A stretch of 64,000 nucleotides of DNA from a virus (taxonomy: Duplodnaviria > Heunggongvirae > Uroviricota > Caudoviricetes), in IMG/VR virus record IMGVR_UViG_3300028559_000023, positions 12,922 through 76,921 of that record; one strand, written 5' to 3'. Shown in pieces: positions 18,360-57,836 of the stretch. Both the position numbers and the translations under genes were made by a program. How positions within the stretch are numbered: the first letter of the stretch is position 1; every line of letters starts with the position of its first letter. The notes under the pieces were generated by a model. That model saw nothing but the letters and a program-made list of their open reading frames with translations, had not been told where the DNA came from and did not search any database.

Positions 18360-18380
18360 GAACCCGTTAACTTAACCCTT
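18360..18380 (+). promoter_or_regulatory. conserved 21-nt motif GAACCCGTTAACTTAACCCTT, a putative phage-RNAP promoter (copy 1 of 4)
   Basis: Near-identical copies at 28962-28982, 57816-57836 and 43168-43188. All are intergenic and each sits upstream of a gene block; this copy lies 75 nt upstream of the lysis cassette. Confidence 0.5.
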
Positions 18381-18454
18381 AAACGCTCCCCCGGACATAA
18401 GCATGAATACTGAGAATATTCTTCTTATATTCTTAGTCAGTACAGAGGATTGTT

Positions 18455-18985
18455 ATGTTACCTATCGTTGCAAGCCTTTTGTCGAACGGCCTGAGCCTCC
18501 TGGGCAACGCAGTTTTGGCTAAAGGGAAAGATTGGGTTGAAGCGAAAACCGGTGTGGATCTTACGAGGGAGTCTCTGAGTCAAGAGGATCTGACCAAGCT
18601 CCGTATTGCCGAGATGGAACACGAAGAAGAGCTTCTACGAATCAAACAGAATGACGACCGGATCAGTCTGGAGTTTGAGCGGATGAAGCTGGACAATGTA
18701 AAAGATGCCAGGTCTATGCAGGTCACGGCTCTGTCTCAGAATGACTGGCTGGCCAAGAACTTTGTGTATCTTTTCATTGCCATCTGGTCAGTGGCCGCGA
18801 TGGTGTTCATCGGCGCAATAACATTTGGCGATGTCCCTGAAAATAACCAGCGCTTTGCTGATACCATTCTAGGCTTTGTGCTAGCCACTGTCCTTGGTGG
18901 TATTTTCCAATACTTACTCGGGACTACGCCGCAGTCTAAGGCAAAAGACAGCACTATCCAGAATCTTGCGGAGAAAGCATTATGA
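18455..18985 (+). CDS. membrane protein, putative holin or lysis-associated membrane protein
   Basis: 176 aa. It has an N-terminal hydrophobic segment, a charged central region and two C-terminal transmembrane-like segments (NFVYLFIAIWSVAAMVFIGAITFG; LGFVLATVLGGIFQYLLG). The stop overlaps the next start as ATGA. Confidence 0.4.
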   Translation: MLPIVASLLSNGLSLLGNAVLAKGKDWVEAKTGVDLTRESLSQEDLTKLRIAEMEHEEELLRIKQNDDRISLEFERMKLDNVKDARSMQVTALSQNDWLAKNFVYLFIAIWSVAAMVFIGAITFGDVPENNQRFADTILGFVLATVLGGIFQYLLGTTPQSKAKDSTIQNLAEKAL

Positions 18986-19308
18986 GCTTAGGTAAGGAAC
19001 AAGAAGCCTTCAGTCGTCACCTTGCGCTTCTCCTCATGGAGGCGTTTAATCGTGGCTATGAAGTGCGCATGGGTGAAGTGCAGAGAATGCCTGAAATGCA
19101 GCAGATTTACTTTAAAACAGGTAGATCCAAAACACTGAATAGCGCTCACTTGTCAAAGCTGGCTGCCGATCTCCATTTCACTAAAGCTGGTGTGCTCTGC
19201 TACCCAGATGAGCTTGGTAGATATTGGGAGTCGCTAGACCCTAAAAATCAGGCAGGCATGTTCTGGAAAACGTTCAAGGACTCTCCACACTTCGAGCGGA
19301 AAATTTGA
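18982..19308 (+). CDS. putative endolysin, M15-like metallopeptidase
   Basis: 108 aa. The ...NSAHLSKLAADLHF... and C-terminal ...DSPHFE motifs resemble the His/Asp zinc ligands of M15 / VanY-type cell-wall peptidases. Sits immediately after the putative holin. Confidence 0.45.
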   Translation: MSLGKEQEAFSRHLALLLMEAFNRGYEVRMGEVQRMPEMQQIYFKTGRSKTLNSAHLSKLAADLHFTKAGVLCYPDELGRYWESLDPKNQAGMFWKTFKDSPHFERKI

Positions 19309-19366
19309 TATCTTATATGAAGGCTCGATAATGGGCCTTTACCACCCACCAACCTAGGAGTCGCCA

Positions 19367-19600
19367 ATGGCGTCTAACGAAGCAGTCAGACAGGCTGACA
19401 TTTTGGACAAAGTGCAGTCGATGCGTTTCGCCATGTTTGAAAGTGAGCACAAGACACATCCGGCCGCCGACGAGCTGCGACGTCTCTCCAAAGAAAACGA
19501 AGAGCTTCTGGCGCTGCTGAAACGCACAACTGAAGAATGTATCTACCCAGGATACCTCGTGTCTGACATTTACGCGAAAGTTGTGGAGAAGATTAAATGA
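19367..19600 (+). CDS. hypothetical protein
   Basis: 77 aa. RBS AGGAG upstream. Confidence 0.55.
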   Translation: MASNEAVRQADILDKVQSMRFAMFESEHKTHPAADELRRLSKENEELLALLKRTTEECIYPGYLVSDIYAKVVEKIK

Positions 19601-19815
19601 CGAAGCTTGAGGAGCTCAAGTTGCGCATGTTTCAAAACAAGTACGGCGTGATGACCAGCAATGAAGCTCTTGAGTGCGCTATGCTCGATGATGGCATAGC
19701 TCGTGATTTGGCGACTCACGATCCCGCCAAGGCACGGTTCTGGCACAGCGCTCACGATATGCTTTCCTACGCAGAGCTTTTGGAGAAGAAAGAGGTATCA
19801 AATGCTGTACAATGA
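19597..19815 (+). CDS. hypothetical protein
   Basis: ATGA overlap with the upstream gene. 72 aa. Confidence 0.5.
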   Translation: MTKLEELKLRMFQNKYGVMTSNEALECAMLDDGIARDLATHDPAKARFWHSAHDMLSYAELLEKKEVSNAVQ

Positions 19816-20044
19816 ACAGCGTGTTGTGCTGAAGTTTGAAAACGACGCTGATGGTACTGAAAAAGCTTTTGTGGATCTTAATAGAGCATATGGCCACCCT
19901 TGCGGCGCCACTTCACCTCTTCAGGCACACGATTTCAAGACAACAGAGCTGGCCTTGGCGTATGCTGCACACTTCACGACGTATCCTCTAAAGATACGCC
20001 AAGAAGCGATCATCCTAAACATCAACGTAATCTGGATGGACTAA
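19802..20044 (+). CDS. hypothetical protein
   Basis: ATG at 19802 preceded by AAGAAAGAGG. This is the in-frame later start of track ORF 19703..20044. Confidence 0.5.
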   Translation: MLYNEQRVVLKFENDADGTEKAFVDLNRAYGHPCGATSPLQAHDFKTTELALAYAAHFTTYPLKIRQEAIILNINVIWMD

Positions 20045-20047
20045 CAA

Positions 20048-20590
20048 ATGAAATTCGAGAAAGTAACTGAGACTGCATACTACGCAGAAGACGGCTCACA
20101 CATTCTCAAAGAAGGCGACGAATGGGTAAAGCGAGACAGAAAGGGCAAACGCCTAGACTCAAGCAGCAATGCTGACATGTTACTGGGAGAAGTTGATTGG
20201 CGTGGTCGTGCGTATCCGTCTGTCAATCAGATCACGGTCAATGTCAACTCGAGTGTGACTTCGAAGAGTCTTGGACAGCTGCTTCGTGAAAAAATCTACG
20301 CCGACGAGGCTCAGCGAACGATCAAGATGTTCTTCAGGGATGTCCCTATTGGACAAACTTTCGTGGATGCCCACGGAAAAGTCTACGCGAAGGATGCAAC
20401 ATCGGCTAGCTGGGCACGTCGTTCACTTGACGGCGCAAACCGCCATTTTGCTCACGATGACGAAGTGGAACTCGTCGGATCCAGCACTCTAGTCAGTAAT
20501 TTCAATCAGGCTCCGGTCAAGTCCCACTTCTTCGCCGGTCCGCGACGTTACTTCAAGAGCGCTGTCGATATGTGTGTGAGGGCTTCATGA
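20048..20590 (+). CDS. hypothetical protein
   Basis: 180-aa ORF with a tight 3-nt gap from the upstream gene. Confidence 0.55.
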   Translation: MKFEKVTETAYYAEDGSHILKEGDEWVKRDRKGKRLDSSSNADMLLGEVDWRGRAYPSVNQITVNVNSSVTSKSLGQLLREKIYADEAQRTIKMFFRDVPIGQTFVDAHGKVYAKDATSASWARRSLDGANRHFAHDDEVELVGSSTLVSNFNQAPVKSHFFAGPRRYFKSAVDMCVRAS

Positions 20591-20946
20591 TGAAATGGCA
20601 GATTTGGTTTGCGTGGTACCCAGTGGCCTTCGGGCCGCATATTGCCTGGATGAAGTACGTCCAGCGTCGCAGAGACCTTGACGACGGTTCTTGGATCTAC
20701 AGGCGCGACATTTTTCCTTTGGACAGTCCTTCGTACCATTTCAGAAATCTTCCGTGCAGCGTAGTTCAAGACGAAGATCTTTGGTACGTTGCAGGGCACC
20801 TCTACAAGAATAATGAGATCACAATGTCCGGCATTCTTGAGTGGTGCACGAGTAAAGAAGACGCTGATGCAGTATGGCGTCGCATGGTAAACTCAGGCAC
20901 TGATTTCAGAAACCTCTACTTTGCAAAGTTTCTCGCAAATGACTAA
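20587..20946 (+). CDS. hypothetical protein
   Basis: ATGATG at 20587 overlaps the upstream TGA, with GAGGG 6 nt upstream. This is an in-frame later start of track ORF 20572. Confidence 0.5.
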   Translation: MMKWQIWFAWYPVAFGPHIAWMKYVQRRRDLDDGSWIYRRDIFPLDSPSYHFRNLPCSVVQDEDLWYVAGHLYKNNEITMSGILEWCTSKEDADAVWRRMVNSGTDFRNLYFAKFLAND

Positions 20947-21025
20947 ACCTACTCCCGCAGGCTGGTTCTGGCTGTGCTACACAGTCACAATCCTTTCAAT
21001 TCTCTCAACCATGGTGCAGTGGTGA
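20939..21025 (+). CDS. small hydrophobic peptide (28 aa, one predicted transmembrane segment)
   Basis: ATG at 20939 overlaps the upstream stop region. Product MTKPTPAGWFWLCYTVTILSILSTMVQW. Not in the track because it is under 60 aa. Confidence 0.3.
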   Translation: MTKPTPAGWFWLCYTVTILSILSTMVQW

Positions 21026-21152
21026 ACCAGATCAATTGGCTTAAAGAAATCGTCACATCTGACTCAAAGGATGACGAACCCTTCAATTCACCTTTCTTGT
21101 CTGCTTGGTTTTCGGACACCTCGATCTTAGATGCTGCTGACGCGCTAGGTGT

Positions 21153-21419
21153 GTGGTGCATGGGAGGTCCGCTTTGAGCTTCATTCAGAACGTATCCTTG
21201 GATGACATCGTAAAGGCCTGGCACTACGACCCTGGTGTTAACAGTATGTTGATACAGATCGTGGATGTCGAACGGCCGACTTTTCCGAAACCTTTGTATG
21301 TGTTTAAGGAGACGCATCAGTTTCGCTTCGACGACATCGATGAGGGCCTACAGCAATACGTCCAGGTCAGGCAGCGCAGATTGCCGATCTGCTACGAAAA
21401 GCTCTTGAACTACGAATGA
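21153..21419 (+). CDS. CX5R-family (tyrosine/dual-specificity-type) phosphatase, N-terminal part, upstream of a -1 frameshift
   Basis: GTG start. Contains the general-acid-like region FRFDDIDEG about 35 aa before the P-loop encoded in the next frame. Ends LPICYEKLLNYE with stop at 21417-21419. Confidence 0.45.
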   Translation: MVHGRSALSFIQNVSLDDIVKAWHYDPGVNSMLIQIVDVERPTFPKPLYVFKETHQFRFDDIDEGLQQYVQVRQRRLPICYEKLLNYE

Positions 21420-21574
21420 ACGTGATTGTCCATTGCGCGGCTGGTATTTGTAGGAGCGGTGCTGTAGTTGAAGCCGGCGTTGTTCTTGGCTTCGACGACA
21501 CACAGACAATGAGGATACCGAACACCCTTGTCAAGACATCAATCCTTGAACAACTAGGATTCAAACATCAATGA
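21416..21574 (+). CDS. CX5R phosphatase P-loop fragment (MNVIVHCAAGICRSGA...), in the -1 frame relative to 21153..21419
   Basis: HCxAGxxRSG is the signature active site of Cys-based protein/RNA phosphatases. The -1 frame is open from 21344 and encodes ...GQAAQIADLLRKALELRMNVIVHC. The overlap contains GAAAAG. Confidence 0.5.
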   Translation: MNVIVHCAAGICRSGAVVEAGVVLGFDDTQTMRIPNTLVKTSILEQLGFKHQ

Positions 21575-21873
21575 CCACCTTCGCCAATACTCTCAAAGCT
21601 GCAGCTAACCATCAGCTTGAGGACGGCCCTTATGAGACAGGCCATACCGGCAGAACACGCTACAGCTGCGTTGCAATACACTTTGAAGAAAGAAAACACA
21701 AGCTTGATATATCAGGTCCCTGCGAACTTTGGTATGCAGCCAACGCTTTCGGAGACCTGGATATCGATTGCGTACCCTCGCTGATCCGGTCTTCTTGTGG
21801 CGATGAAGCGCAGAATGTACGCTTTATGCTTTTGATGTTCATGTCCTATCTTGCCAAAGACTCGGGGTTGTGA
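21571..21873 (+). CDS. hypothetical protein
   Basis: ATGA overlap with the upstream gene. 100 aa. Confidence 0.5.
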   Translation: MTTFANTLKAAANHQLEDGPYETGHTGRTRYSCVAIHFEERKHKLDISGPCELWYAANAFGDLDIDCVPSLIRSSCGDEAQNVRFMLLMFMSYLAKDSGL

Positions 21874-22025
21874 TGCGTGAATTTCTTTTAGGGCTTGTGT
21901 GCTGTCTTGTTGCGTTCGCCATGGGGAGCTACATGGCAAGGACTAGAATAGAAAACGAGTGCAAAAACTTTGGGCTGTTCATAAGCGGCTCCAACAAATA
22001 CAGTTGCAAAACTGCGGAAAAATAG
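21873..22025 (+). CDS. small secreted/membrane peptide (50 aa) with an N-terminal signal-like segment
   Basis: ATG overlaps the upstream TGA. Product begins MREFLLGLVCCLVAFAMGSY... Not in the track. Confidence 0.35.
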   Translation: MREFLLGLVCCLVAFAMGSYMARTRIENECKNFGLFISGSNKYSCKTAEK

Positions 22026-22090
22026 CCATCCTATATGAAGAGCTCGAAAGAGTTACTTCTTAACCTACCAACCATCGAAGGAAACCTATC

Positions 22091-22489
22091 ATGCGTGAAA
22101 TTGCCATTTTTGCCGCGATCTGCCTGATCGCTTTGTTCTGCGCCGTTCTGTCGGTGTTCGGCCTCACCGTCGCCGCTTCTGCAGTCGCTGTTGCAGTTGC
22201 CGTTTCGGTGTTTGCTGGCGTGTTCGGTCAAGCTGTCAATCTCCTGTCTGTCGGCCTGTTGGCGATTTGGCGTGAGATTCTGTGGTTTCTGGAGCTGATG
22301 GGCGCACCCATTTTCTTCGGAATCTTGTTGCAGAAAATTGCAGTTGCCTACTTTGGTTACGGTGCCTTCGGTATCGCTTTCCTCAGCGGCTTCGGCTTGT
22401 TTCTGTTCAACGCAGCTGTCTACATTGTCATCTTCTGGGTGACCATGCGTCTCGTTCGTGAAGTTCAAATCATCGCAGCCAACGCCTAA
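22091..22489 (+). CDS. integral membrane protein (about 4 transmembrane segments)
   Basis: 132 aa, strongly hydrophobic throughout. A conserved leader AACCTACCAACCA lies 17 nt upstream of the ATG. Confidence 0.6.
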   Translation: MREIAIFAAICLIALFCAVLSVFGLTVAASAVAVAVAVSVFAGVFGQAVNLLSVGLLAIWREILWFLELMGAPIFFGILLQKIAVAYFGYGAFGIAFLSGFGLFLFNAAVYIVIFWVTMRLVREVQIIAANA

Positions 22490-22498
22490 GGAGGCAAT

Positions 22499-22720: not shown

Positions 22721-23022
22721 GAAACCTCAGCAACATGCTTCGCTCAGCCAACAGCTTGCTTCGGCGGGCAAACGAAGCGTTAACCGAAGAGATTCGGAAA
22801 GCGCGCGACGAACACAAGAACAACAAAGAAGTTCTGAAGCTCATCGACGTCATCTGTATGCGACATCGACAGCATACGCTTCGCGAGACCACAGAGGCAA
22901 CACTTCGCAACCTGGTGAAAGAAGATCTCGACAACATCGTGGATCTTGTTGAGCTGGTGCTTCTGTGTACGACAACGCAGGCGCGGATGTTTGAGCTTGT
23001 GGCGCGCAACAAGGGCCGATAA
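22717..23022 (+). CDS. hypothetical protein
   Basis: ATGA overlap with the upstream gene; this is the in-frame later start of track ORF 22627. Its last 10 nt, including the stop codon, lie inside tRNA-Met. Confidence 0.45.
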   Translation: MRNLSNMLRSANSLLRRANEALTEEIRKARDEHKNNKEVLKLIDVICMRHRQHTLRETTEATLRNLVKEDLDNIVDLVELVLLCTTTQARMFELVARNKGR

Positions 23023-23089
23023 CTCAATAGGTTAGAGTAGCCGACTCATAATCGGTTAGTTACAGGTTCGAGTCCTGTTCGGCCCACCA
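23013..23089 (+). tRNA. tRNA-Met (anticodon CAT; elongator type or Ile2), CCA encoded
   Basis: Cloverleaf folded by hand. Acceptor GGGCCGA/TCGGCCC. D-stem ACTC/GAGT with GG in the loop. Anticodon loop CTCATAA. T-arm ACAGG-TTCGAGT-CCTGT. Discriminator A followed by CCA. Confidence 0.8.
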
Positions 23090-23312
23090 GTGTTCAGGTT
23101 AAGTGCACTACCTGCTGAAAAGGTGCAACGAAGCTTTAGCCTACCACGGGCTACTGCGGGTAAATAGTGGAGTGCTTGAGGTCATCCCTCTTACTCAAGC
23201 ATAAGGACAACAGAGGAACCCATCTGAAATATGGTGGGACCACTTAAGTGCCTTTAGCAGGGTATTTAAGTGGTCTTCTCAACAACCTACCAACCAACAC
23301 GAGGTAAACGAA

Positions 23313-23543: not shown

Positions 23544-23767
23544 TCCAGTACTACGACTTCGCAATCCAGTTCACGGAAAGCACCTTCCTTGGCCTCGACA
23601 GTGGTTACAATCCGATTGAAGTTGACAGCATCAAGCACGCTTGTCGATTCGAGCGTTTTGAGTTGGCTGACAACTATCTCAAAAGCTGGCCGAAGGATCG
23701 TTTTCCAGCCTCTACAAGCATCGTGCGTGTGTACAACACCTCAGAGATCGTGAAACAGCGCGGTTGA
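23540..23767 (+). CDS. hypothetical protein
   Basis: ATGA overlap with the upstream gene. 75 aa. The 3' end overlaps the start of tRNA-Leu. Confidence 0.5.
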   Translation: MIQYYDFAIQFTESTFLGLDSGYNPIEVDSIKHACRFERFELADNYLKSWPKDRFPASTSIVRVYNTSEIVKQRG

Positions 23768-23842
23768 CGGAACCGGTAGACGTAGCGGGCTTAAAACCCG
23801 CAGCCGAAAGGCGTATGGGTTCGATTCCCATACCGCGCACCA
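23758..23842 (+). tRNA. tRNA-Leu (anticodon TAA), class II with long variable arm, CCA encoded
   Basis: Acceptor GCGCGGT/ACCGCGC. Anticodon stem GCGGG/CCCGC with loop CTTAAAA. Variable arm AGCCGAAAGGCGT. T-arm ATGGG-TTCGATT-CCCAT. Ends A + CCA. Confidence 0.75.
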
Positions 23843-25168: not shown

Positions 25169-25466
25169 TGTAGTTCGGATACACGGCTACTACTGCACGA
25201 AGAAAGAAGGCTTCTCAAAAGCCAGACGTTACCTCGACGATCGTGAGTTCATCTTTACGGTCAGAGAGTTCAAGCTTAGTGCAGTAGAGCCTGTGATCTT
25301 CGAAGAGTCCTACTACTTCGGCTCGCTGCTGAATCCGATACCTGTCGTTCCATTCGTAGATATCTTCGGGTCGCCTGTCCCTTTCTTTGTGAAAAAAGAC
25401 AGTGCAAGAAAATTACGTTTGTTGCTATCAGGTTTCGCCGGCGCGAGATCTGTGAATCGCGTCTAA
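25122..25466 (+). CDS. hypothetical protein
   Basis: 114 aa. Overlaps the upstream gene by 47 nt in another frame, with no alternative in-frame start. Followed by a strong terminator. Confidence 0.35.
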   Translation: MVTRCMPSSASLPPSDVVRIHGYYCTKKEGFSKARRYLDDREFIFTVREFKLSAVEPVIFEESYYFGSLLNPIPVVPFVDIFGSPVPFFVKKDSARKLRLLLSGFAGARSVNRV

Positions 25467-25470
25467 GCCA

Positions 25471-25515
25471 CTCAGCCTTCGGGCTGGGTGGTTGTAGTCC
25501 CTCTTTTTTTTTTTT
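25471..25515 (+). terminator. intrinsic terminator (hairpin with UUCG loop plus a 12-T run)
   Basis: CTCAGCC-TTCG-GGCTGGG stem at 25471-25488. T12 at 25504-25515. Confidence 0.7.
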
Positions 25516-25694: not shown

Positions 25695-25756
25695 GTTTTT
25701 AATTGGATTTTGGATAATTTATTTAATCCCTTACATACTGGCGAAGCTACCGAAAC

Positions 25757-28009
25757 ATGTCAGTAAAACTAACTAAATCGATAATTGTAGCATCCATAAC
25801 TAATCGACTTGCCAACGAAATAGCACCACAGAACCCTGTGTCTTTTTTACTAAAGCACACTGTGGATGACTACTACTCAGAACTCATAAGTACGCTGTAC
25901 CTGTACACAAGGCCCAAAAAGGGTGCCAAGTCGCAGAACATTTACTTCTCAGAGCTTATATCAGCTTTAGGCCACACAATACGCTCCAAACTAGGCCATC
26001 GTAAAGACTCGGCTGTTGCTGCAAAAACCGGAGCGTTTCTGTTGTATACGTTCCAGACCTTGGGCGTTCTAGAGTTGGTGGTCGTTGCAGGAAAATCACA
26101 TGCAACTTATGCAATAGTTGTTAAAGATGAAGAAGCAATTGCTGCAATATGGAGCACACTGTCTTTTGAAAAGGTTAGAAAGCTCCCCACACTTTCAAAG
26201 CCTTCAGATTGGGTCGGTACTAGACATCCTTCCGGTGTCATGATCGTGAAGACAGGTAGCTCAGAGGTGCTCAAGTCCTTGAGCCCTTCCAATCAGCCAA
26301 TGGTGTTTGAGTCTCTCAACAGATCACAACGTATCGGTTGGAATGTAAATAGCGAGTTGCTCACTGTTGCAGCCTGGGCCTTGAAGAATCGTACTGACGC
26401 TTTTGCGGATATCTGGGAGCAGGTCAACCCAGAAGCCAGGGCCACAAAAGTCAGAGAAGCAAAAGCTATCACTGACATGGGCAAACGGCTACTCAACAAA
26501 ACTTTTTACCATGTCTATTACTACGACTTTCGTGGTCGTAAGTACCCATCATCAGCCTATCTACACGAGCAAGGTTCTGACTTATCAAAAGGCCTATTGT
26601 TGCGAGCCGAAAGGAAACCGATAGGTGCAAGAGGCTATTGGTGGTTAATGGTCACTATCGCGTCGGAGTGGGCGGGTGATGCAGATAGATCTGACGGTCT
26701 TAAGACTGACAAGATACCTCTACAAAACCGATTTGAGTGGGCTGAGCGTCATGAAGATCTTTTGCTGTCTTATGCTGAAGCGCCGAAGATAAACACTGGA
26801 TGGATGTCTGCAGAAAATCCATGGAGATTCCTGGCTGGCTGTATTGAGCTTAAAAATCTACGAGTGTGGCAGTTCAACAACAACGATTTCAACAGCTACG
26901 GCTATCAATCTGGGTACTTGGGTTTCATAGACGGATCCAACAATGGTTGCCAACACCTTGCTGCTCTTACGCGAGACGAGGTTACGGCCGTACATGTGAA
27001 CCTTGTCAAACAGGAATACCCCGGTGATTTGTATCGTTATGTGGCTTCAAGCGTGTGGGAGAGCGTCAACGCTGAAGTGTCAAGGCTGCCAGCTGATGTA
27101 GTTGCACGCGCAGACGCTTTTATTGATGACCTGATGACTCTTAAACGCGAGATATCGGCGAAAGAATTCTCTGACGAGACAAGAGCGCCACTGGTAAACG
27201 CTCTGTTAGCGCTTAAGAACTCCAATCCTGATATCGATGTTATTACACCACAAGTCTTCTGGCGTCGCGTAGATAGCGCCAAAGAGAGGCGCAAGATTGT
27301 CAAACGAAACGTGATGACACTACCGTACGGAGGTACGCCATACGGTCTTGGAGAGCAGCAGATAAGTGACGCAAAGAAACATGGCATTGCGCTTCTGCTT
27401 CATATGCAACATCGATGGGCTGCTTTTATGGGGCGTCGTGTGTACGAAGACTGCAAGGTTTCTCTTAAGCGCCCTATGCAGCTTCTTAGCCTGTTTGAAG
27501 ACGCAGGCAGAAAGGCCGAGGAAGAAGGTCGCTTTCTTAGCTGGGTGGTCCCTATAACAAAGTTTCCCGTAGTTCAGAATTACACATCTGGAAAGATAAA
27601 GAAGATCTATGTGCAGTACGGTCCTCCAGTCGGTGCCAGAAAGAGTACTGGTTACTATGAGAACACACTGCAGATAAATATTTGTTTTATCGAAGATGTC
27701 GAGCCAACTAAGGGTAAACAAATTCAAGGCGCCAGTCCTAATGCAATCCACTCTCTAGACGCTGCTCATGTTGCCATAACCGTGTGCAATACTGACGCAG
27801 ATATCACTACTATCCACGACAGCTTTGGCGCTCTCCTTTCAGATATGGATGAGCTTTTTGTGTCTGTTAGAAAGTCATTTGTACAACTCTACAATGTAAA
27901 CCCTCTTAAGCAACTATTTGATGACATCGGCGCTGACATGTCAAATGTTTCATTTGGAAACTTGGACGTCTCAGCTATACTTGAATCTGAATACGCATTT
28001 AGCCCATGA
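25757..28009 (+). CDS. single-subunit DNA-directed RNA polymerase (T7-like), compact 750-aa form
   Basis: Carries ...IDGSNNGCQHLAALTRD... (compare T7 DGSCSGIQHFSAMLRD), ...HSLDAAHV... and ...IHDSFGALL... (T7 HDSFGT). Confidence 0.85.
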   Translation: MSVKLTKSIIVASITNRLANEIAPQNPVSFLLKHTVDDYYSELISTLYLYTRPKKGAKSQNIYFSELISALGHTIRSKLGHRKDSAVAAKTGAFLLYTFQTLGVLELVVVAGKSHATYAIVVKDEEAIAAIWSTLSFEKVRKLPTLSKPSDWVGTRHPSGVMIVKTGSSEVLKSLSPSNQPMVFESLNRSQRIGWNVNSELLTVAAWALKNRTDAFADIWEQVNPEARATKVREAKAITDMGKRLLNKTFYHVYYYDFRGRKYPSSAYLHEQGSDLSKGLLLRAERKPIGARGYWWLMVTIASEWAGDADRSDGLKTDKIPLQNRFEWAERHEDLLLSYAEAPKINTGWMSAENPWRFLAGCIELKNLRVWQFNNNDFNSYGYQSGYLGFIDGSNNGCQHLAALTRDEVTAVHVNLVKQEYPGDLYRYVASSVWESVNAEVSRLPADVVARADAFIDDLMTLKREISAKEFSDETRAPLVNALLALKNSNPDIDVITPQVFWRRVDSAKERRKIVKRNVMTLPYGGTPYGLGEQQISDAKKHGIALLLHMQHRWAAFMGRRVYEDCKVSLKRPMQLLSLFEDAGRKAEEEGRFLSWVVPITKFPVVQNYTSGKIKKIYVQYGPPVGARKSTGYYENTLQINICFIEDVEPTKGKQIQGASPNAIHSLDAAHVAITVCNTDADITTIHDSFGALLSDMDELFVSVRKSFVQLYNVNPLKQLFDDIGADMSNVSFGNLDVSAILESEYAFSP

Positions 28010-28947: not shown

Positions 28948-28961
28948 CACTTCATGTTTGC

Positions 28962-28982
28962 GAACCCGTTATCTTAACCCTC
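28962..28982 (+). promoter_or_regulatory. conserved motif GAACCCGTTATCTTAACCCTC, a putative phage-RNAP promoter (copy 2)
   Basis: 19/21 identity to the copy at 18360. Intergenic, 26 nt upstream of the SSB-like gene that opens the replication block. Confidence 0.5.
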
Positions 28983-29007: not shown

Positions 29008-29523
29008 ATGGCGATCTTAAAGGACTGCGAAGTCTACTACCTCAAAGCAAACCCCAGTCGTCCCAATCGAAAGTATGACAAGGAAAATCCCACTTGGGAA
29101 GTTCAGCTGCGTACCCGCGATAAGGTCAAAAAGGCTGAATGGCGCGCCCTCGGCTTGCCAATGAAAGACGTTATCCCGGAAGACGGTTCGCCTGCATACA
29201 CGCGGGTAAGTCTTCGCAAACGAATCATCAAGAAGGACAAGACGGCCGCGTCGCCTGTTGAAGTCATCAACGCAAGTCGTGAGCCAATTGATCCTGACAC
29301 TGTCGGTAACGGCTCTATTGCCAACATCCGTCTTTATCAGTACGAATATCCTAAGAAGGGCGGCGGAATGGCTGTCGCTTTTGTCTTGATGGGTATTCAG
29401 GTCAAGAAACTCATTAAGTACGAAGCTCGTGTACGTGATGACGACTTCGATGATGAAGGTGAGACTGAGGTCGTTGAACCTGAAGCAGCAGGCGCTCCTG
29501 AAGAGGATCCTGAGAAGTATTGA
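29008..29523 (+). CDS. putative single-stranded DNA-binding protein (acidic C-terminal tail)
   Basis: 171 aa. Basic N-terminal two-thirds, then the acidic tail DDDFDDEGETEVVEPEAAGAPEEDPEKY, as in T7 gp2.5-type SSBs. First gene after the promoter motif. Confidence 0.35.
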   Translation: MAILKDCEVYYLKANPSRPNRKYDKENPTWEVQLRTRDKVKKAEWRALGLPMKDVIPEDGSPAYTRVSLRKRIIKKDKTAASPVEVINASREPIDPDTVGNGSIANIRLYQYEYPKKGGGMAVAFVLMGIQVKKLIKYEARVRDDDFDDEGETEVVEPEAAGAPEEDPEKY

Positions 29524-43167: not shown

Positions 43168-43188
43168 GAAGCCGTTGGCTTAACCCTT
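43168..43188 (+). promoter_or_regulatory. promoter-like motif GAAGCCGTTGGCTTAACCCTT (copy 4, 18/21 identity to the copy at 18360), immediately followed by the inverted repeat CCTTATC-N6-GATAAGG
   Basis: Lies 44 nt upstream of the island gene. The 7-bp inverted repeat spans 43185-43204. Confidence 0.4.
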
Positions 43189-43231: not shown

Positions 43232-43852
43232 ATGTCTATTTCTGCTGACTCTTTTGTTACCAAGATCATTGTCAAGGGCCCGGACGGTAAAGAACATCAG
43301 TTCGATACCAAGCAGGAGGCTGTTGACTTTCTGCGTCGCCCCAAGATTGAAGAAGCTCTGAAGGCTGTCACTGCCAACAACGCCGAGCTGACCAAGTGGC
43401 TGATGGAGAACCAAGAAGGCGTCGAAATGGCCTTCGAGATTGGCACTGTTCGTCGTGTCACCAAGCAAGAGCACAAGAAGATGGGTCTGGCTCTGGACTT
43501 CATTGCTGAACAAATGAAGGACCAAAAGGCTGCTGCGTTCGCAGTTGACAACATCGCCGCTATCAAGGATTCGTTCCGTTGGCCGTCGGTGAAGCGTCTG
43601 AAGCCCGAAGAGAAGACTGAAGCTGCTCGTCGCTCGCTCATGGCTCTTTCGAATAACAACGAGTCGCTGTCGGCTTGGGTTATCGAAAACCAAGAGAAGG
43701 TTATGGAAGCTTTTGAAGCTGGCAAGGTCAAGCGCGAAGTGCACCCGGCCGCTTCGGAAGCCCTGGCTGCCTGGCGTGCCAACAAGGCGGCTGCTAAGGC
43801 TGCTGAAGCGGGTGCGGCTCCCGCTGCTGAAGGCGGTGCTCCCTCTGCTTAA
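43232..43852 (+). CDS. hypothetical protein with two tandem ~50-aa repeats and an Ala/Lys-rich C-terminal tail; the gene of the GC-rich island
   Basis: ATG at 43232 with AAGGA 6 nt upstream; the track's start at 43196 has no RBS. Internal repeat consensus ...ALxxNNxEL(T/S)xW(L/V)(M/I)ENQExVxxAFExGxVxR... The tail reads ...ANKAAAKAAEAGAAPAAEGGAPSA. Codon usage is distinct (CTG/AAG/GCT/CGT-rich). A strong terminator follows. Confidence 0.6.
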   Translation: MSISADSFVTKIIVKGPDGKEHQFDTKQEAVDFLRRPKIEEALKAVTANNAELTKWLMENQEGVEMAFEIGTVRRVTKQEHKKMGLALDFIAEQMKDQKAAAFAVDNIAAIKDSFRWPSVKRLKPEEKTEAARRSLMALSNNNESLSAWVIENQEKVMEAFEAGKVKREVHPAASEALAAWRANKAAAKAAEAGAAPAAEGGAPSA

Positions 43853-43914: not shown

Positions 43915-43954
43915 GGCCCCACTCACGTTAACGCGTGTAAGTGGGGCTTTTTTT
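43915..43954 (+). terminator. intrinsic terminator (GGCCCCACTCACG...CGTGTAAGTGGGGC hairpin plus T7)
   Basis: Long GC stem, then TTTTTTT at 43948-43954. Confidence 0.7.
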
Positions 43955-44116
43955 AAGGAACTCCTTTGCGATTCAAGACGGTAATTAATGTATCAGCCAG
44001 TACTACCATAGGTGCTATCTGTTACACTTACTTCTTCCCAATATCAGTGCCTGTCTACGTGATTTTTTCGGCAGGTTACCTGATGCTTCTACTCGCCTAT
44101 ATTCACGAAAAGTTAT

Positions 44117-47343: not shown

Positions 47344-47696
47344 GTCAGCCCAACTTTGGAAAGTTGTACACTGAAAAGTGGCCATACCGAGAAGACGCAG
47401 GTGTAGGGCTATCTTTCAGAGGTCTACCGACCAGTCTAGAAGATTTTCAAAGCGTACTAATGGACTTCAGCTGCCACCCAGTAGCTGCGGAAAGAATCTT
47501 CAATCGCATTAGAGAAAATGGTGAGACAAAGACGACTGTGGTTGCTTTTCTGGATTTTGAAAAGCTATCCAGTATGCTTGCAGAGCTCGGAGTCTCTTTA
47601 TCTATTGTACCACCAATCGACAACCCCGTGTCTTATGAATATGATACTCCCTTTCCATCTTCTTTCATCCCGCCTCATTTGAGAAAGCCGTCTTAG
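47340..47696 (+). CDS. hypothetical protein
   Basis: ATGA overlap with the upstream gene. 118 aa. The stop codon lies inside the 5' end of tRNA-Thr. Confidence 0.5.
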   Translation: MSQPNFGKLYTEKWPYREDAGVGLSFRGLPTSLEDFQSVLMDFSCHPVAAERIFNRIRENGETKTTVVAFLDFEKLSSMLAELGVSLSIVPPIDNPVSYEYDTPFPSSFIPPHLRKPS

Positions 47697-47762
47697 CTCC
47701 AGCGGTAGAGCAATCGCCTTGTAAGCGAGAGGTCGTCGGTTCGAATCCGACAGACGGCACCA
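47687..47762 (+). tRNA. tRNA-Thr (anticodon TGT), CCA encoded
   Basis: Acceptor GCCGTCT/AGACGGC. D-arm GCTC-CAGCGGTA-GAGC. Anticodon loop CTTGTAA. T-arm GTCGG-TTCGAAT-CCGAC. Ends A + CCA. Confidence 0.7.
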
Positions 47763-49416: not shown

Positions 49417-49493
49417 CCGACCATAGCTCAGCTGGATAGAGCAGCGGACTTCTAATCCGCAGGTCAGAGGTTCGAATCCTCTTGGTCGGACCA
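49417..49493 (+). tRNA. tRNA-Arg (anticodon TCT), CCA encoded
   Basis: Acceptor CCGACCA/TGGTCGG. D-arm GCTC-AGCTGGATA-GAGC. Anticodon stem GCGGA/TCCGC with loop CTTCTAA. T-arm AGAGG-TTCGAAT-CCTCT. Ends A + CCA. Confidence 0.8.
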
Positions 49494-49499
49494 ACCATC

Positions 49500-53040: not shown

Positions 53041-53169
53041 CAGCAGTAAGTATGTTCGTCAAAACCCTGAGGGCCGTCGTATCAATAGATTTGAGCGACG
53101 TACCCACTTCAACACTGAGATGAAAAATCCCAGTCAACTCATTCTCAATCTTCTCAAGCGAGTCTAAAT

Positions 53170-53964: not shown

Positions 53965-54263
53965 TGAAGTCACTTCAAGTTATCAATCTCATGGGTCTGG
54001 GGATCATATCCCCGGATGAGGCTGATGAGTATTCAGAGCTTAAGGTTCTCAAAACTCCTGCTGGTTACTACCTTGGAACCACTTGCGGCTTTGAACCAGG
54101 GTCGCGGGATACGGGTTACTTCACAGAAGAGGCTCATGCCAAATCTGCATTGGAACTGCTTGAGACTCTGTTCTTGAGTCATGGAGCAAACTGTATTCTT
54201 CCCTGGGAGCTCGCTATCGCAAAGACTTACGGTCGCGACATCCCCTATAGGATCAACCCCTAA
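53964..54263 (+). CDS. hypothetical protein
   Basis: ATGA overlap with the SPFH gene. 99 aa. Confidence 0.45.
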   Translation: MKSLQVINLMGLGIISPDEADEYSELKVLKTPAGYYLGTTCGFEPGSRDTGYFTEEAHAKSALELLETLFLSHGANCILPWELAIAKTYGRDIPYRINP

Positions 54264-54710
54264 ATGCGTGAGCAAAAGCAGAAGTATCGCCACAACATTG
54301 AGAAGGGCAACATTGGAGACTGTTTCAGGACATCTGTAGCATGTGTCTTGAATCTAGACAGAGATAGCGTCCCTCACTTCTTTGAGGCTGTTTGGAGTCA
54401 AGAGCGCTCAGCTCAACTCGCTCACGAACATCTCAATAGCTGGCTTGTCAGTGAGGGCCACGGTCTGCACTTTGTTGAATTTCCAATCGAGAGCCCTTCT
54501 GTTGAGGCATTCAAAGGTTACTTGGAGAGCTTCTTCCAGGACCTTTACGTCTTGGTCGGCTGTAACTCTCGTAACGGTGGCCATTCTGTTGTTATGCGAG
54601 GGAAACACTACATGTGGGATCCTTCAATCGATGACAGCGGCTGCGTTGGCCCTATGGACGACGGTTATTACTGGATTGGTCTTTTGGTACACAGGAGGGA
54701 CTTCGGGTGA
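54264..54710 (+). CDS. putative Cys-His hydrolase (papain-fold-like)
   Basis: Candidate catalytic Cys in GNIGDCFRTSVACVLN. Candidate catalytic His in NGGHSVVMRG. Judged by pattern only. Confidence 0.3.
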   Translation: MREQKQKYRHNIEKGNIGDCFRTSVACVLNLDRDSVPHFFEAVWSQERSAQLAHEHLNSWLVSEGHGLHFVEFPIESPSVEAFKGYLESFFQDLYVLVGCNSRNGGHSVVMRGKHYMWDPSIDDSGCVGPMDDGYYWIGLLVHRRDFG

Positions 54711-54802
54711 CGTGCTTTACACCTGACGAGCTCAGGGCTTTCTTCTTCGGTTTGTTAGCGGCTATCGTAGTCCTAGTAATTATCGCTACAGTAAGGAGAT
54801 AA

Positions 54803-55282
54803 ATGGATTCTTTTGAACAAATTGCTTTCACGTGCCATGAAGTGTTGAGAGCCTTAGGCGCTACTGCCTTCAAGCAATGGCAGGATCTTCCTTTAGGGAC
54901 TAAAGCAAAGCTCTCAGACGTTGTCTACGAGATTGCTTTGAACTTCAAGTCTTTTGAGCAGATCCATAATCGTTATCAGCATGTTGGCTGGATAGTTTTG
55001 AAACTCACTCCCGATGCAGTATCGTACGAGGATCTGAGCGACACAGCGAAAATGCATTATCGTGTTGTGGTTGCTTTAGTCAAGTCTATGTACGCGGCGC
55101 AGCAATTCGACGCTATTGCAGACATCACCAGCGCTTCAGAATTGCTCACTGAAAAGGCTAAGTTTGTGTCGCCTGAATATTCCGCGCTTGTAGCTGAAGG
55201 TCTTAACTTGTTCGATGCGAAACGCGCTGAGCAGGAAGCCCAGATCTTCAAAAACGCCGTAGTCACAGATACTCTCACCTAG
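54803..55282 (+). CDS. hypothetical protein
   Basis: 159 aa. RBS AAGGAG upstream. Confidence 0.55.
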   Translation: MDSFEQIAFTCHEVLRALGATAFKQWQDLPLGTKAKLSDVVYEIALNFKSFEQIHNRYQHVGWIVLKLTPDAVSYEDLSDTAKMHYRVVVALVKSMYAAQQFDAIADITSASELLTEKAKFVSPEYSALVAEGLNLFDAKRAEQEAQIFKNAVVTDTLT

Positions 55283-55408
55283 AGGTTCATGCAGGTTGGT
55301 CAATTACCTGGGCGAGTGGTGACCGCCATCTTTCAACTGCGAGCTGACACAGTAGAATTGACATCAGCGTAAACAGAGGCTCTGTAGTATTTGTAAGAGC
55401 TGCGTAAG

Positions 55409-55702
55409 GTGAGAACCCTTAACCAACTTTGGATAACCATGCAATACTTACTAACTGAAACTGAATATCTTAAACTCAAGTCCGAGAAAGCCGTACGTGT
55501 AGGTAAAGAGCGTGACGAACTTCAAGCATTTTGTACGCTGGCTGCTAACCACATTCCTGTAAAGCCTCACTGGAGTAGTGAGCCTCCAAGTCCTTGGGGC
55601 TGCATCTTGGGAGGCCAGCAATTTAGCGTAAGGCCTGAATACTGTGATTGCTGCCCGTCTCAAAAGCTTTGTCCATATGATGGTAAGGAGTGGTCCAAAT
55701 GA
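55409..55702 (+). CDS. hypothetical protein with a C-terminal Cys cluster
   Basis: 97 aa. C-terminal motif CDCCPSQKLCPYDG. Confidence 0.45.
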   Translation: MRTLNQLWITMQYLLTETEYLKLKSEKAVRVGKERDELQAFCTLAANHIPVKPHWSSEPPSPWGCILGGQQFSVRPEYCDCCPSQKLCPYDGKEWSK

Positions 55703-56046
55703 GCTTTGAGTGCCATATCACGTTACATAATAGACACGCAGACGTTGGGAAGCAAATTGCTGAGCTGTTTGGGTGGAAAACATCTGCTATTGATGGAGAT
55801 CCTCTTCTTGGCAAGGAGGTGTTCTTCTACTTAACAAAGCATGACGACGATTATAAACAGATTGCTGAGGACATGTACAAGTGCTTTGGTCGACTACAAG
55901 ACCTGCAGGTAGAAGTCGTTCGTCTTAAAATTGAGGAGATTCTTTTTGACTCAAGGAATTTACGTGGGAACGGTCTCCCACTTAGTCGGGAAGAGCGCCT
56001 TGCTGCGGTTTCCTCCGGAAGAATCGCACGTGCTGGCTCAGTTTGA
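55699..56046 (+). CDS. hypothetical protein
   Basis: ATG at 55699 with AAGGAG 8 nt upstream; the track starts at a GTG at 55690. The C-terminal part is low-complexity. Confidence 0.4.
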   Translation: MSFECHITLHNRHADVGKQIAELFGWKTSAIDGDPLLGKEVFFYLTKHDDDYKQIAEDMYKCFGRLQDLQVEVVRLKIEEILFDSRNLRGNGLPLSREERLAAVSSGRIARAGSV

Positions 56047-56199
56047 TGATCGCAAGCTTACTAGATCGGGACATCCATTTCAAAGTGTACTTGAGTACGA
56101 GCCTCATTCACGCTTTCCAACACAACAACTCCCCGACGAACCTCCTAGGGACGCGCTAGGCTTTGGCTGGCACGTATTTCGAAAAGAAGAGTTTGAAAT

Positions 56200-56415
56200 A
56201 TGTTCGTAGAGTTTACGATCTACCCAGGCGTCATGCCAGTAGTAGGTTACAATCTCTGGTCACAAGAAACTCACCCTCGATATCAGCTAGGAGGGTCTCC
56301 TTCAATCTGTATCGGCAAGTTTGCTGATATTGTCAGAGGTACTTCTCAAAACTTGGATTTCCTAGAACAATGCAACGCTCTAGGTATCGACATAAAGTTA
56401 TACAATCATGTCTGA
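56200..56415 (+). CDS. hypothetical protein
   Basis: 71-aa ORF. Confidence 0.4.
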   Translation: MFVEFTIYPGVMPVVGYNLWSQETHPRYQLGGSPSICIGKFADIVRGTSQNLDFLEQCNALGIDIKLYNHV

Positions 56416-56572
56416 GGCCAATTACTTCTGCATTGTTGAAGGTATTGACAGGCCTATCTTTGAAGAGCAATGTAACTTCAAGATGCGAATGGGGTGGCGT
56501 CTGCATGGCACTCTCAACATATCTACCAATGAACACGGTGTTGTTCGTTATATACAGGCCTTCGTCAAATGA
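56408..56572 (+). CDS. small hypothetical protein (54 aa)
   Basis: ATG overlaps the upstream gene end. Product MSEANYFCIVEGIDRPIFEEQCNFKMRMGWRLHGTLNISTNEHGVVRYIQAFVK. The stop overlaps the next ATG. Not in the track. Confidence 0.35.
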   Translation: MSEANYFCIVEGIDRPIFEEQCNFKMRMGWRLHGTLNISTNEHGVVRYIQAFVK

Positions 56573-56763
56573 CTGATCTAGAGAAGTTTCAAGCGTTATG
56601 TAAAGACTTTGGATTAGAGCCAGAGACAACTATCAGTGAAAGTAAGGCTACACATCTAACTTTTGAGAAACCTCAGGCAAAGGTAAAGGGCTATGCCAGC
56701 TCGTTAGCTGAGTTTGTATTCGAGGCCGATGGTAGTTTTAGTCATGTTGGAGTATGGGAATGA
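56569..56763 (+). CDS. hypothetical protein
   Basis: ATGA overlap with the upstream gene. 64 aa. Confidence 0.45.
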   Translation: MTDLEKFQALCKDFGLEPETTISESKATHLTFEKPQAKVKGYASSLAEFVFEADGSFSHVGVWE

Positions 56764-57041
56764 GCGGTAATTCTGATCAGGCTTATGAAGACTTTGCCGA
56801 TGCCGCTAGGACAAAGAACAGAGTAATATACAGGCGCAAGTTCATAGAGTATAACAACGACCCTCAAAGACGTTGTTATAACGGCTGTCATTTTAGCACA
56901 GCCACCTATTGGACTGAGTGGGAAGAGTACGATAGCGTATCTGAAGACAAATTTGAGGCTCGATTAGCCTTCTGGCGAGACCTTAACGCTGATGCTGTAA
57001 AAGCACGTGGTAAGGGTAACACACTTTGTGAGTACAAATGA
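56754..57041 (+). CDS. hypothetical protein
   Basis: 95-aa ORF. Confidence 0.45.
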   Translation: MGMSGNSDQAYEDFADAARTKNRVIYRRKFIEYNNDPQRRCYNGCHFSTATYWTEWEEYDSVSEDKFEARLAFWRDLNADAVKARGKGNTLCEYK

Positions 57042-57322
57042 CTTCTTTATTTGATGTGATCTACAGGCTTAATCAAGCAAAAGATAATCTTGAACGGATT
57101 TCGGCTGAACATGAGCAAGCACGTGCTCAAATGCGAGAGGCCAATACCGCATTCCAAAACTTTGTTGGTGCGTACGTCACCGCTAGTTTTCCTGCAGTAG
57201 TTGAAATCAGCTATAAGAAATATTTGCTCTCTTTCTGCGTCAGTTCTCAATCCTACCAATTGGAACAAGTCGAGACGCTTAGTCCGACCATCATCACGGA
57301 TGCTGCTACAGCTGAAGTTTGA
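57038..57322 (+). CDS. hypothetical protein
   Basis: ATGA overlap with the upstream gene. 94 aa. Confidence 0.45.
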   Translation: MTSLFDVIYRLNQAKDNLERISAEHEQARAQMREANTAFQNFVGAYVTASFPAVVEISYKKYLLSFCVSSQSYQLEQVETLSPTIITDAATAEV

Positions 57323-57328
57323 CAAACA

Positions 57329-57390
57329 CACCTCCATGGGAGCCCTTAACAGGGTTTCTGTGGAGGTGCCCTCAATTTATTTTTTTTTTT
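57329..57390 (+). terminator. intrinsic terminator (CACCTCCA...TGGAGGTG 8-bp stem enclosing an inner hairpin, then a 14-T run)
   Basis: Stem arms at 57329-57336 and 57361-57368. T14 at 57377-57390. Confidence 0.6.
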
Positions 57391-57464
57391 CTATGATCAA
57401 ATGGCTAAACAACCGGCTTTCTTTCAACTACTATTATGGGCTAGTATGTACAGAAAAGGAGTTC

Positions 57465-57803
57465 ATGAAGACACTAAAGAAGATGGGTATTCAAGACGTT
57501 GGTGTATGGCTGGACGGAGCTCATGCTAGAACACACCACTTTGTGTCTAACAGAGGTAAGGGCTGTTCAGTAGTGTGCTTCAACGCTTATGACCCCGACA
57601 ACATAGCCAGACTTAAAGATAACCCTATAGGTATCTGTGGCCTGATGGTTCATGAAGCGACTCATATCAAGCAAGACCTAATGCGCTTTATTGGAGAATC
57701 TAAACCCTCTCTTGAGTTTGAGGCTTACCTTATGCAAGCCATTTCAGAAGAGCTTATAGGTGCTGTTGGTGAGGCCCTCCAAAAGGCATCCACAACTAAG
57801 TGA
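57465..57803 (+). CDS. small HExxH zinc-metallopeptidase-like protein
   Basis: ATG at 57465 with AAAGGAG 4 nt upstream; this is the in-frame later start of track ORF 57201. Motif MVHEATHIKQD (HExxH). 112 aa. Confidence 0.45.
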   Translation: MKTLKKMGIQDVGVWLDGAHARTHHFVSNRGKGCSVVCFNAYDPDNIARLKDNPIGICGLMVHEATHIKQDLMRFIGESKPSLEFEAYLMQAISEELIGAVGEALQKASTTK

Positions 57804-57815
57804 GTTGAGGTTGTC

Positions 57816-57836
57816 GAACCCGTTAAATTAACGATA
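57816..57836 (+). promoter_or_regulatory. conserved motif GAACCCGTTAAATTAACGATA, a putative phage-RNAP promoter (copy 3)
   Basis: The first 17 nt match the copies at 18360 and 28962. Intergenic, upstream of the AT-rich region and the terminase genes. Confidence 0.45.

Follow-up and report, generated by a model that had tools for sequence, protein, structure and literature searches.

A 21-nt intergenic motif as a candidate promoter for the T7-type RNA polymerase of an uncultured siphovirus-type phage clade

Identification of the cognate promoter is the limiting step in using new single-subunit RNA polymerases (ssRNAPs; PMC11475235). This question is raised by the stretch of 64,000 nt analysed here (IMG/VR record IMGVR_UViG_3300028559_000023, positions 12,922 to 76,921; hereafter the window), which represents a siphovirus-type phage genome with its own ssRNAP. 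Four copies of a 21-nt motif occur in this DNA, and an earlier note, made from the sequence alone, had proposed them as candidate promoters for the phage enzyme. Is this motif what the polymerase reads? Comparison with relatives of the phage supports the proposal. As judged from sequence, the four copies are most probably promoters for the phage's own T7-type ssRNAP. We favour this reading because the motif forms a contiguous block, is strand-specific and intergenic, occupies orthologous positions in the relatives, and is replaced by another motif in a phage with a divergent polymerase.

The four copies are located at 18360..18380 (GAACCCGTTAACTTAACCCTT), 28962..28982 (GAACCCGTTATCTTAACCCTC), 43168..43188 (GAAGCCGTTGGCTTAACCCTT), and 57816..57836 (GAACCCGTTAAATTAACGATA), and are referred to below as copies 1 to 4. 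Their sequences were found where the earlier note had placed them, with one correction to the core said to be common to all: copy 3, the most diverged of the four, reads GAAGCCGTT and not GAACCCGTT. Copy 4 agrees with the motif over 17 positions, the deviation being restricted to the last four bases of the 21 (GATA-type 3' end). Exactly four copies are present in the window, all on the coding strand. The 21-mer with up to three mismatches was matched three times, as compared to 0.02 matches expected, while the core GAASCCGTT had five matches, all on the + strand, with 0.98 expected. A weight matrix made from the four sites assigned scores of 27.8–33.1 to the copies and 11.5 to the best other position on either strand. 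The same four copies were also returned by a blind repeat search without prior input, as the top non-tRNA family (D2). Two other candidates were rejected. One is the weaker partial match that the earlier note had listed at 55410 (GAGAACCCTTAACC), which scored below 8 with both matrices used in this study. The other, GAAGCCGTT at 58909, lies inside the terminase open reading frame (ORF), is devoid of the 3' half of the motif, and scored 7.4.

As the earlier note had it, all four copies are in the + orientation and fall in gaps separating + strand ORFs. Such gaps, counted from 40 nt upward, make up 5.8% of the first 62 kb (3,582 nt). The intergenic location of copy 2 was also obtained by an independent gene call on a public contig with the same RNAP. 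Copies 1 and 2 additionally have in common 10 of 12 bases immediately upstream of the motif (ACTTCAYGTTYG; 18347-18359 and 28949-28961). The lack of conservation of this shared stretch across the clade points to gene conversion or copying between the two sites in this genome.

We infer that the motif is read by the product of the gene located at 25757..28009 on the + strand. The claim that a T7-type RNAP is encoded here proved right: the 750-aa protein is a genuine ssRNAP, as seen from its match to Pfam family PF00940 (RNA_pol; 3e-59) and from its alignment to T7 RNAP (1aro, 1cez; E ~1e-43), which covers the palm and fingers motifs and the specificity-loop region. The catalytic motifs are DGSNNGCQH (A), RKIVKRNVMTLPYGG (B), and IHDSFG (C); a C-terminal YAF is also present. 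An identical RNAP is present in assemblies of public sequencing runs, such as SRR8441843. The nucleotide sequence of the gene gave no match among 50,697 phage records, and no relatives of the protein were detected in 185,579 bacterial and archaeal genomes, so that no clue to a prophage or a host was obtained.

The search of IMG/VR with this RNAP yielded 24 loci at 48–59% identity, nearly all of which contain the motif on the RNAP strand. A profile search revealed 243 RNAP relatives in uncultured viral contigs (about 45–59% identical). A second matrix was built from the sites in the 24 RNAP loci and scanned over both strands of 81 loci (1.26 Mb) anchored on RNAP or terminase homology; 57 related loci were obtained from the terminase side. 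Up to 10 kb was fetched on each side of every anchor match, and positions with a score of at least 20 were counted as matches. The 81 loci contained 100 matches, of which 99 were on the gene strand, and the distribution of scores was clearly bimodal. Another 64 RNAP loci (1.13 Mb), which came from the profile search and were outside the matrix-building set, contained 74 matches, all on the gene strand, distributed among 50 loci. For the combined 145 loci (2.4 Mb), these numbers amount to 174 matches, 173 of them on the gene strand. Of 77 distinct matches, two are located within + strand ORFs of 100 aa or more, as compared to 79.5% of random positions. Frequent occurrence inside coding sequences, named in the earlier note as an observation that would speak against promoters, is not what the relatives display. 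Many contigs carry both the motif and the RNAP gene. The bare 14-mer CCCGTTAAATTAAC occurs in at least 120 IMG/VR loci; among the 14-mer matches listed, presence of the full motif tracks homology to this phage (40/63 versus 7/57). Variant copies, such as GAGACCGTTACATTAACCCAA located 550 nt upstream of the terminase gene, were identified in EBPR siphovirus 1.

Genes flanking the relatives' copies were assigned by tblastn with the window proteins, and orthologues of all four window copies were recognized. Copy 2 lies 26 nt upstream of the gene for a gp2.5-like single-stranded DNA-binding protein (SSB), and the motif was found 32–62 nt upstream of the SSB homologue in 12 of the 13 distinct relatives that have one there. 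Copy 3 lies 44 nt upstream of the gene at 43232, homologues of which are preceded by the motif, at a distance of 91–294 nt, in nine distinct relatives. The earlier note had regarded this as an 'island gene'; it is instead a clade-wide gene, whose homologues always possess their own copy of the motif. An attempt to anchor copy 3 on the gene for DHH phosphoesterase (42005) failed, since this gene lacks conservation within the clade; the conserved anchor is the 43232 gene. Copy 4 is located 253 nt upstream of a terS-like gene (58089-58574); homologues of the latter have the motif 73–672 nt upstream in about 30 distinct relatives. For copy 1, the motif was found upstream of homologues of the ORFs 18455-18985 or 18982-19308 in three distinct relatives, and many more loci have a copy 2.5–8 kb upstream of the RNAP gene, which is the position of copy 1. 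Protein identity at the orthologous sites is 27–63% and, because it is as low as this, the flanking DNA is not alignable and the 21-mer alone persists.

In the loci of relatives, the motif is one contiguous block of about 20 nt, rAmCCCGTTrwmTTAACCCTw. In 66 non-redundant sites, only positions 1-21 carry information, which drops to about 0 bits in both flanks. Positions A2, C5, G7, T8, T9, T13, T14, A15, and A16 are invariant, while positions 10-12 form the variable centre. Positions 17-19 are occupied by CCC in 52 sites and by (T/C)GA in the other 14. Copy 4 belongs to the second type, and its TTAA(T/C)GATA variant occurs also in the related loci L017, L021, L181, L183, and L190. No second conserved block was detected at sigma-factor spacing (16-19 nt) across the 66 sites, and sigma70-like matches in the scanned regions were at chance level. 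The motif has no GC-rich hairpin followed by a U-tract, as characteristic of intrinsic terminators; true terminators are located elsewhere. The Rfam search revealed no family at the motif sites and found only the four tRNAs. The inner part, GTTAA-n-TTAAC, is palindromic. Changes at positions 10, 11, and 17, however, are not compensated on the opposite arm of the palindrome, which indicates that the sequence is read as such and does not act as a hairpin. The inverted repeat, being without compensatory changes, also differs in this respect from a hairpin promoter of the N4 type.

The nearest cultured phage RNAP, 32% identical to the one examined here, is that of the roseophage DSS3_VP1 (MN602266.1), a phage grown on Ruegeria pomeroyi DSS-3; the specificity-loop region of its RNAP is shorter and different. 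The genome of DSS3_VP1 contains 13 + strand copies of another repeat, AATAGG(G/T)T(G/A)CGTTAAAG(A)GGGG (AATAGGGTGCGTTAAAGAGGGG; short form AATAGGGTGCGTTAAAG), which are mostly intergenic and are located at 2250, 2341, 6588, 7416, 19245, 19334, 29404, 38541, 45934, 46401, 46559, 55106, and 59204 (L206/L207). The two phages are alike in having their genes on one strand and a copy ahead of the SSB homologue, 60 nt upstream in DSS3_VP1, and CGTTAAA is common to both elements. The upstream half is ATAGGGTG in DSS3_VP1 but rAmCC here, the downstream half is purine-rich GAGGGG there but TTAACCCT here, and the repeat of DSS3_VP1 is present in more copies. A divergent RNAP together with a different motif at the same pre-SSB position is the signature expected of a co-evolving polymerase/promoter pair; coming from one outgroup, it is supportive but not decisive. 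The DSS3_VP1 repeat may itself be considered a T7-like promoter candidate, apparently an undescribed one. The description of the Naomviridae (Rihtman et al., 2021; PMC8323127) discusses neither promoters nor this repeat. In the literature search for the 14-mer, no paper mentioning the motif was found, RNAP-mining papers included, and a preprint on Endozoicomonas phages that cites the Naomviridae was unrelated.

If these sites are promoters, where would transcription start? The 40 nt downstream of the motif fold better than shuffled sequences (-5.5 versus -3.6 kcal/mol, p = 3e-5). Among the pre-SSB sites, a custom variable-loop search identified a hairpin with its 5' arm starting at motif position 16-18 in 28 of 51 cases, as compared to 5.5 expected. 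As many as 15 different arm pairs are in use (e.g., CCCTC/GAGGG, CCCG/CGGG, CCCA/TGGG, and ACCCTC/GAGGGT), which means that the stem is kept while its sequence changes. RNAalifold found no consensus pairs in 47 pre-SSB sites, because loop lengths vary and, without gaps in the alignment, the 3' arms do not line up. In the window, copy 3 has a 7-bp hairpin from motif position 18 and copy 4 has a hairpin from position 17, while no such hairpin is present at copies 1 and 2. Provided that these hairpins are 5'-terminal in the RNA, the start must be at or before position 16-17, since this is where they begin. The only invariant purines near the expected start are A15 and A16. ssRNAPs normally initiate with a purine, and it is by this argument that +1 was put at A15 or A16. 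We tentatively place the start at A16 ± 1, that is, at about 18375, 28977, 43183, and 57831, an assignment with slightly less than an even chance of being correct. With +1 at A16, CCGTT would be at -11 to -7, TTA at -3 to -1, conservation would end at about +6, and the transcripts would carry a 5'-terminal hairpin. The specificity loop of T7 RNAP reads the promoter at -11 to -7, and T7 late transcripts start with a stem-loop.

About a quarter of the sites (42/154, about 27%) are followed by a C-rich box at a fixed distance. The consensus of this C-box is roughly SCSSCYCCCCCY at motif positions 24-35, with the C-run at positions 30-34. Copy 1 of the window is a site of this kind (CGCTCCCCCGG); it is followed by aaaCGCTCCCCCGG, with the box within 18381-18394 and the C-run at 18388-18392. 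Sites with a C-box lie upstream of the early/RNAP region, of the terS-like gene, or of both (examples are L156:8886, L171:242, and L249:6680), and one genome can hold both kinds, as seen in L241 plus L164 and in L256 plus L171. They often have a second motif copy 80–156 nt downstream together with an AT-rich stretch, and the RNA predicted from them is unstructured. Several long contigs end 186–356 nt upstream of a C-box site. The DSS3_VP1 copy at 2341 is likewise followed by a C-rich run. A TATAAT-like hexamer was found after the C-run in 11 of 42 C-box sites versus 8 of 112 other sites. The reading of C-box sites as sigma70 promoters was rejected, the -10-like hexamer being present in only about a quarter of them and absent from the window. 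The sole high-scoring copy on the opposite strand in the 2.4 Mb examined, L180:4288 (- strand), is also a C-box site; it lies 220 nt from a weaker + copy, with which it may form a divergent pair.

The C-box could mark a genome end, an origin, a pause site, or a dual promoter. At the left end and the primary origin of T7, host promoters lie next to phage promoters, and AT-rich DNA comes after promoters arranged in tandem. By analogy, a site with the C-box (CGYYCCCCC, at the constant distance of +9 to +20) could serve to link transcription by the phage RNAP with early transcription by the host enzyme, with the initiation of replication, or with the processing of concatemers. Its function would then be similar to that of T7 phiOL, the phi1.1A/B origin, or the CJ pause, with a new sequence and in a siphovirus lineage. 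A division into two site classes, i.e., plain copies with a non-G start at A16, a C-rich initial sequence, and a 5' hairpin, and C-box copies as composite elements at the physical genome end, is rather doubtful.

According to the promoter reading, rAmCCCGTT-rwm-TTAAC(CCT/GAT)w would be a contiguous duplex element of about 21 bp that is contacted by the RNAP on one face. The specificity loop would probably recognize the invariant CCGTT, and melting would probably occur at TTAA. Transcription would proceed rightward into four co-directional units, comprising the endolysin-like gene, small ORFs, and tRNAs from 18.4 kb onward (unit 1), replication genes at 29.0-43 kb (unit 2), the single terminator-closed gene 43232-43852 (unit 3), and the terminase and structural genes from 58 kb onward (unit 4). 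The terminator after the gene of copy 3 and the terminator-like region ahead of copy 1 agree with such an arrangement.

Several observations weigh against this interpretation. Copy 1 lies upstream of the RNAP gene itself, with a strong terminator (25461-25515) in between, which strains the temporal logic; simple read-through from copy 1 into the RNAP gene is improbable, and a separate promoter for this gene may be located in the AT-rich gap 25695-25756. The region 43.96-57.8 kb (about 14 kb with some 45 small ORFs and two tRNAs) contains no motif copy and, for this reason, must be transcribed otherwise. Fourteen of the 64 validation loci gave no match with a score of at least 20; most of them have degenerate copies just upstream of the SSB gene, e.g., CCGTTTTCTTAACCCTC and TCGTTAGCTTAACCCG. 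The specificity-loop region, VQYGPPxGxRxSTGYYENTLQLxICF, is 75% identical within the clade versus 63% for the whole protein but is not exceptionally conserved, ranking 102 among 700 sliding windows; its conservation is consistent with the promoter reading and is not evidence for it. Literal T7 spacing, with 17 bp upstream of +1, would put the start on C17 or C18, a pyrimidine. Finally, the palindromic centre of the motif is what might be seen in an operator for a dimeric protein.

This last feature, together with the location of the sites in regulatory gaps, would fit a phage DNA-binding regulator, a dimeric repressor or activator acting at operon heads, with the real promoters elsewhere. The conserved flanks of the inverted repeat are, however, asymmetric (rAmCCC on the left, CCCTw on the right), its changes at positions 10, 11, and 17 are unmatched on the other arm, and no other conserved promoter-like block accompanies the sites. 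A symmetric operator also needs no orientation, and the strand bias recorded above is nearly complete. We therefore consider an operator improbable. Recognition by the host multisubunit RNAP with an alternative or phage-encoded sigma factor could account for the likeness of TTAACC within the motif to a -35 hexamer, for the more common occurrence of TATAAT-like hexamers at 16-19 nt in C-box sites, and for the position of copy 1 ahead of early-looking genes and the RNAP gene. Yet the block is contiguous and about 20 nt long, no second element accompanies it at 16-19 nt across the sites, and the four window sites have no -10 match in the right register. In addition, no sigma-factor gene was recognized among the ORFs scanned, many small ones of which are unannotated. 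Moreover, the motif accompanies the ssRNAP clade in different environments and is a different one where the ssRNAP is different. On these grounds, a host promoter is very unlikely.

Strand specificity would fit equally well with a signal acting in RNA, such as a processing site, a 5'-UTR element for stability or translation, or a signal at which the phage RNAP pauses or terminates in a sequence-specific manner. Sequence-specific pause sites (class II) are known in T7, and hairpins do abut the 3' end of the motif. Against this stand the absence of covariation, consensus fold, or Rfam match for the motif, the location of positions 1-15 outside every downstream hairpin, and the length of about 8 nt, not 20, of known sequence-specific pause signals for ssRNAPs. 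The order of copy 3, gene, and classical terminator also puts the motif at the start of a unit and not at its end. An RNA-level signal thus has a very small probability. The upstream bases shared by copies 1 and 2, a hint of copying within the genome, could be taken to mean that the copies are functionless remnants of a small repeat or mobile element, if not similar by chance. The 0.02 matches expected and the conservation at orthologous sites despite unalignable flanks effectively refute both possibilities.

How does the putative promoter compare to those of known phages? Its resemblance to the promoters of T7, T3, and SP6 (for T7, TAATACGACTCACTATAGGGAGA, -17 to +6) lies in the presence of a cognate ssRNAP in the genome, a contiguous block of about 20 bp, a number of intergenic copies that head gene clusters in the direction of the genes, terminators bounding the units, and hairpins near the predicted 5' end of the transcript. 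In promoters of this kind, a consensus is generally particular to one RNAP lineage. The sequence is unrelated, and there are only four copies in 64 kb. The expected +1 region is pyrimidine-rich (CCCT) except for the invariant AA at 15-16, the polymerase has 750 aa versus 883 aa in T7 with a reduced N-terminal part, and the genome is of the siphovirus type with a 2,571-aa tape measure, not that of a podovirus of the Autographiviridae. The promoter of cyanophage Syn5 RNAP consists of 15 bp, ATTGGGCACCCGTAA, followed by +1 G; it demonstrates that a short promoter and a relaxed +1 preference occur in this enzyme family (PMC3950665). It resembles the present motif in being short, in containing the string ACCCGT(T)AA, and in its origin from an environmental ssRNAP lineage, while the rest of the sequence differs. 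Copies per genome are also few, two being reportedly given for Syn5 in the JBC paper of 2013. Homology of the common string would imply a +1 at position 12, one of the variable positions of the present motif, and such a start is unlikely. The promoters of N4 virion RNAP are likewise phage-specific, are read by a T7-related polymerase, and have their counterpart in the small inverted repeat of the motif. They differ in being DNA hairpins that are extruded and recognized by a virion-borne polymerase of about 3,500 aa. The two giant ORFs of the window, in contrast, encode a tape measure and a collagen-repeat fibre.

Taken together, the sequence comparisons give good support to the view that the motif represents the promoter consensus of an uncultured, Naomviridae-related, siphovirus-type clade with a compact T7-like RNAP; no earlier description was found. 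The consensus rAmCCCGTTAAATTAACCCTw would be paired with the compact 750-aa RNAP in a clade of at least 243 uncultured viral contigs. This provides a testable transcription map for siphovirus-type phages related to the Naomviridae, a sequence tag by which clade members can be recognized in metagenomes, and possibly a new orthogonal RNAP/promoter pair. If the plain copies do start at A16, they would be unusual in being ssRNAP promoters with a non-G start. Nothing is overturned, as short conserved promoters are expected alongside a T7-type RNAP.

The nearest cultured relatives of the phage are the Naomviridae roseophages DSS3_VP1 and DSS3_PM1, with 54–55% identity to the window phage in the terminase and 32% in the RNAP. 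EBPR siphovirus 1, a partial metagenomic genome, is also close; with this phage included, tblastn identities of the terminases are 54–57%. Members of the Naomviridae have dU-DNA. All substantial ORFs of the window are on the + strand, and most of those adjoining the motif sites received no annotation in family searches. The tape-measure protein (688-8403; PF20155, 1.5e-52) has 2,571 aa; this exceptional length implies a very long tail. It is followed by a fibre of 2,709 aa (9561-17690) with collagen-like GXY repeats at 16491-16565. Between the last tail gene, which ends at 18157, and copy 1, there is a structured region at 18206..18322 (-47 kcal/mol over 18205-18330) followed by the T-rich tract GCUUUUCUUCGUUUAUUUGUU, which looks like a terminator.

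The earlier note had assigned the copies to the lysis, replication, island-gene, and terminase blocks. The replication and terminase blocks were recovered, while the 'lysis block' after copy 1 consists of one weak endolysin-like ORF (PHROG endolysin family, 8e-9; Pfam match below cut-off), followed by about 25 small ORFs and two tRNA genes up to the RNAP gene. Genes for tRNA are located at 23013-23089 (Met-CAT), 23758-23842 (Leu-TAA), 47687-47762 (Thr-TGT), and 49417-49493 (Arg-TCT), all on the + strand and interspersed with the small ORFs. The strong intrinsic terminator at 25461-25515, about 240 nt upstream of the RNAP gene, has a 13-bp GC-rich stem followed by U12. The SSB gene (29008..29523; PHROG 112, 3e-8) is the first of the replication block and is followed by the genes for DNA polymerase A, exonuclease, primase-helicase, ribonucleotide reductase, and the DHH phosphoesterase. 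The conserved gene after copy 3 (43232..43852) encodes 206 aa, including two internal repeats and a tail rich in Ala; no Pfam or PHROG match was found for this protein. The intrinsic terminator at 43915..43955 (GGCCCCACUCACG...GUGGGGC then U7; -22.3 kcal/mol) closes the copy 3 unit, which has the appearance of a unit dedicated to one gene and equipped with a promoter and a terminator of its own.

Copy 4 is followed by an AT-rich leader (57837..58088), the gap at 57804-58088 having a GC content of 32%. Three tandem sigma70-like sites, TTGATG-16-TAAAAT at 57877, TTGTTA-18-TATAAT at 57927, and TTGTTA-17-GATAAT at 57959, are present in this gap; they are consensus matches only, and their overall count in the scanned region is at chance level. 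Placed ahead of the terminase genes, the gap is reminiscent of early host promoters arranged in a cluster, or of AT-rich DNA of the kind present at origins. The structural block starts with the terS-like gene (58089-58574) and the large terminase gene (58564-59925). After the terminase, there are a DUF1800 protein (60211-62163; Pfam, 3e-49) and an ORF of more than 620 aa, which runs from 62172 off the end of the window. The N-terminus of the latter contains FLFGGNDSHNMIIP and may resemble DUF1501. If it does, the DUF1800/DUF1501 pairing is one known from bacterial genomes and would be unusual in a phage morphogenesis region.

Perfect hairpins of 18-19 bp with similar loops (CCUUAACAGG and CCUUUAGCAGG) occur at 57329-57368 (-30.9 kcal/mol), within the nominal ORF 57201-57803, and at 23236-23277 (-26 to -28 kcal/mol), in the gap after the tRNA-Met gene. 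Two gaps of the early region, 19309-19366 and 22026-22090, share TATATGAAGrGCTCGAwA at about 19315 and 22032. The sequence ACCTACCAACC is located just upstream of ribosome-binding sites at about 19345 and 22065, and again at about 23290, in a third gap (23280-23312).

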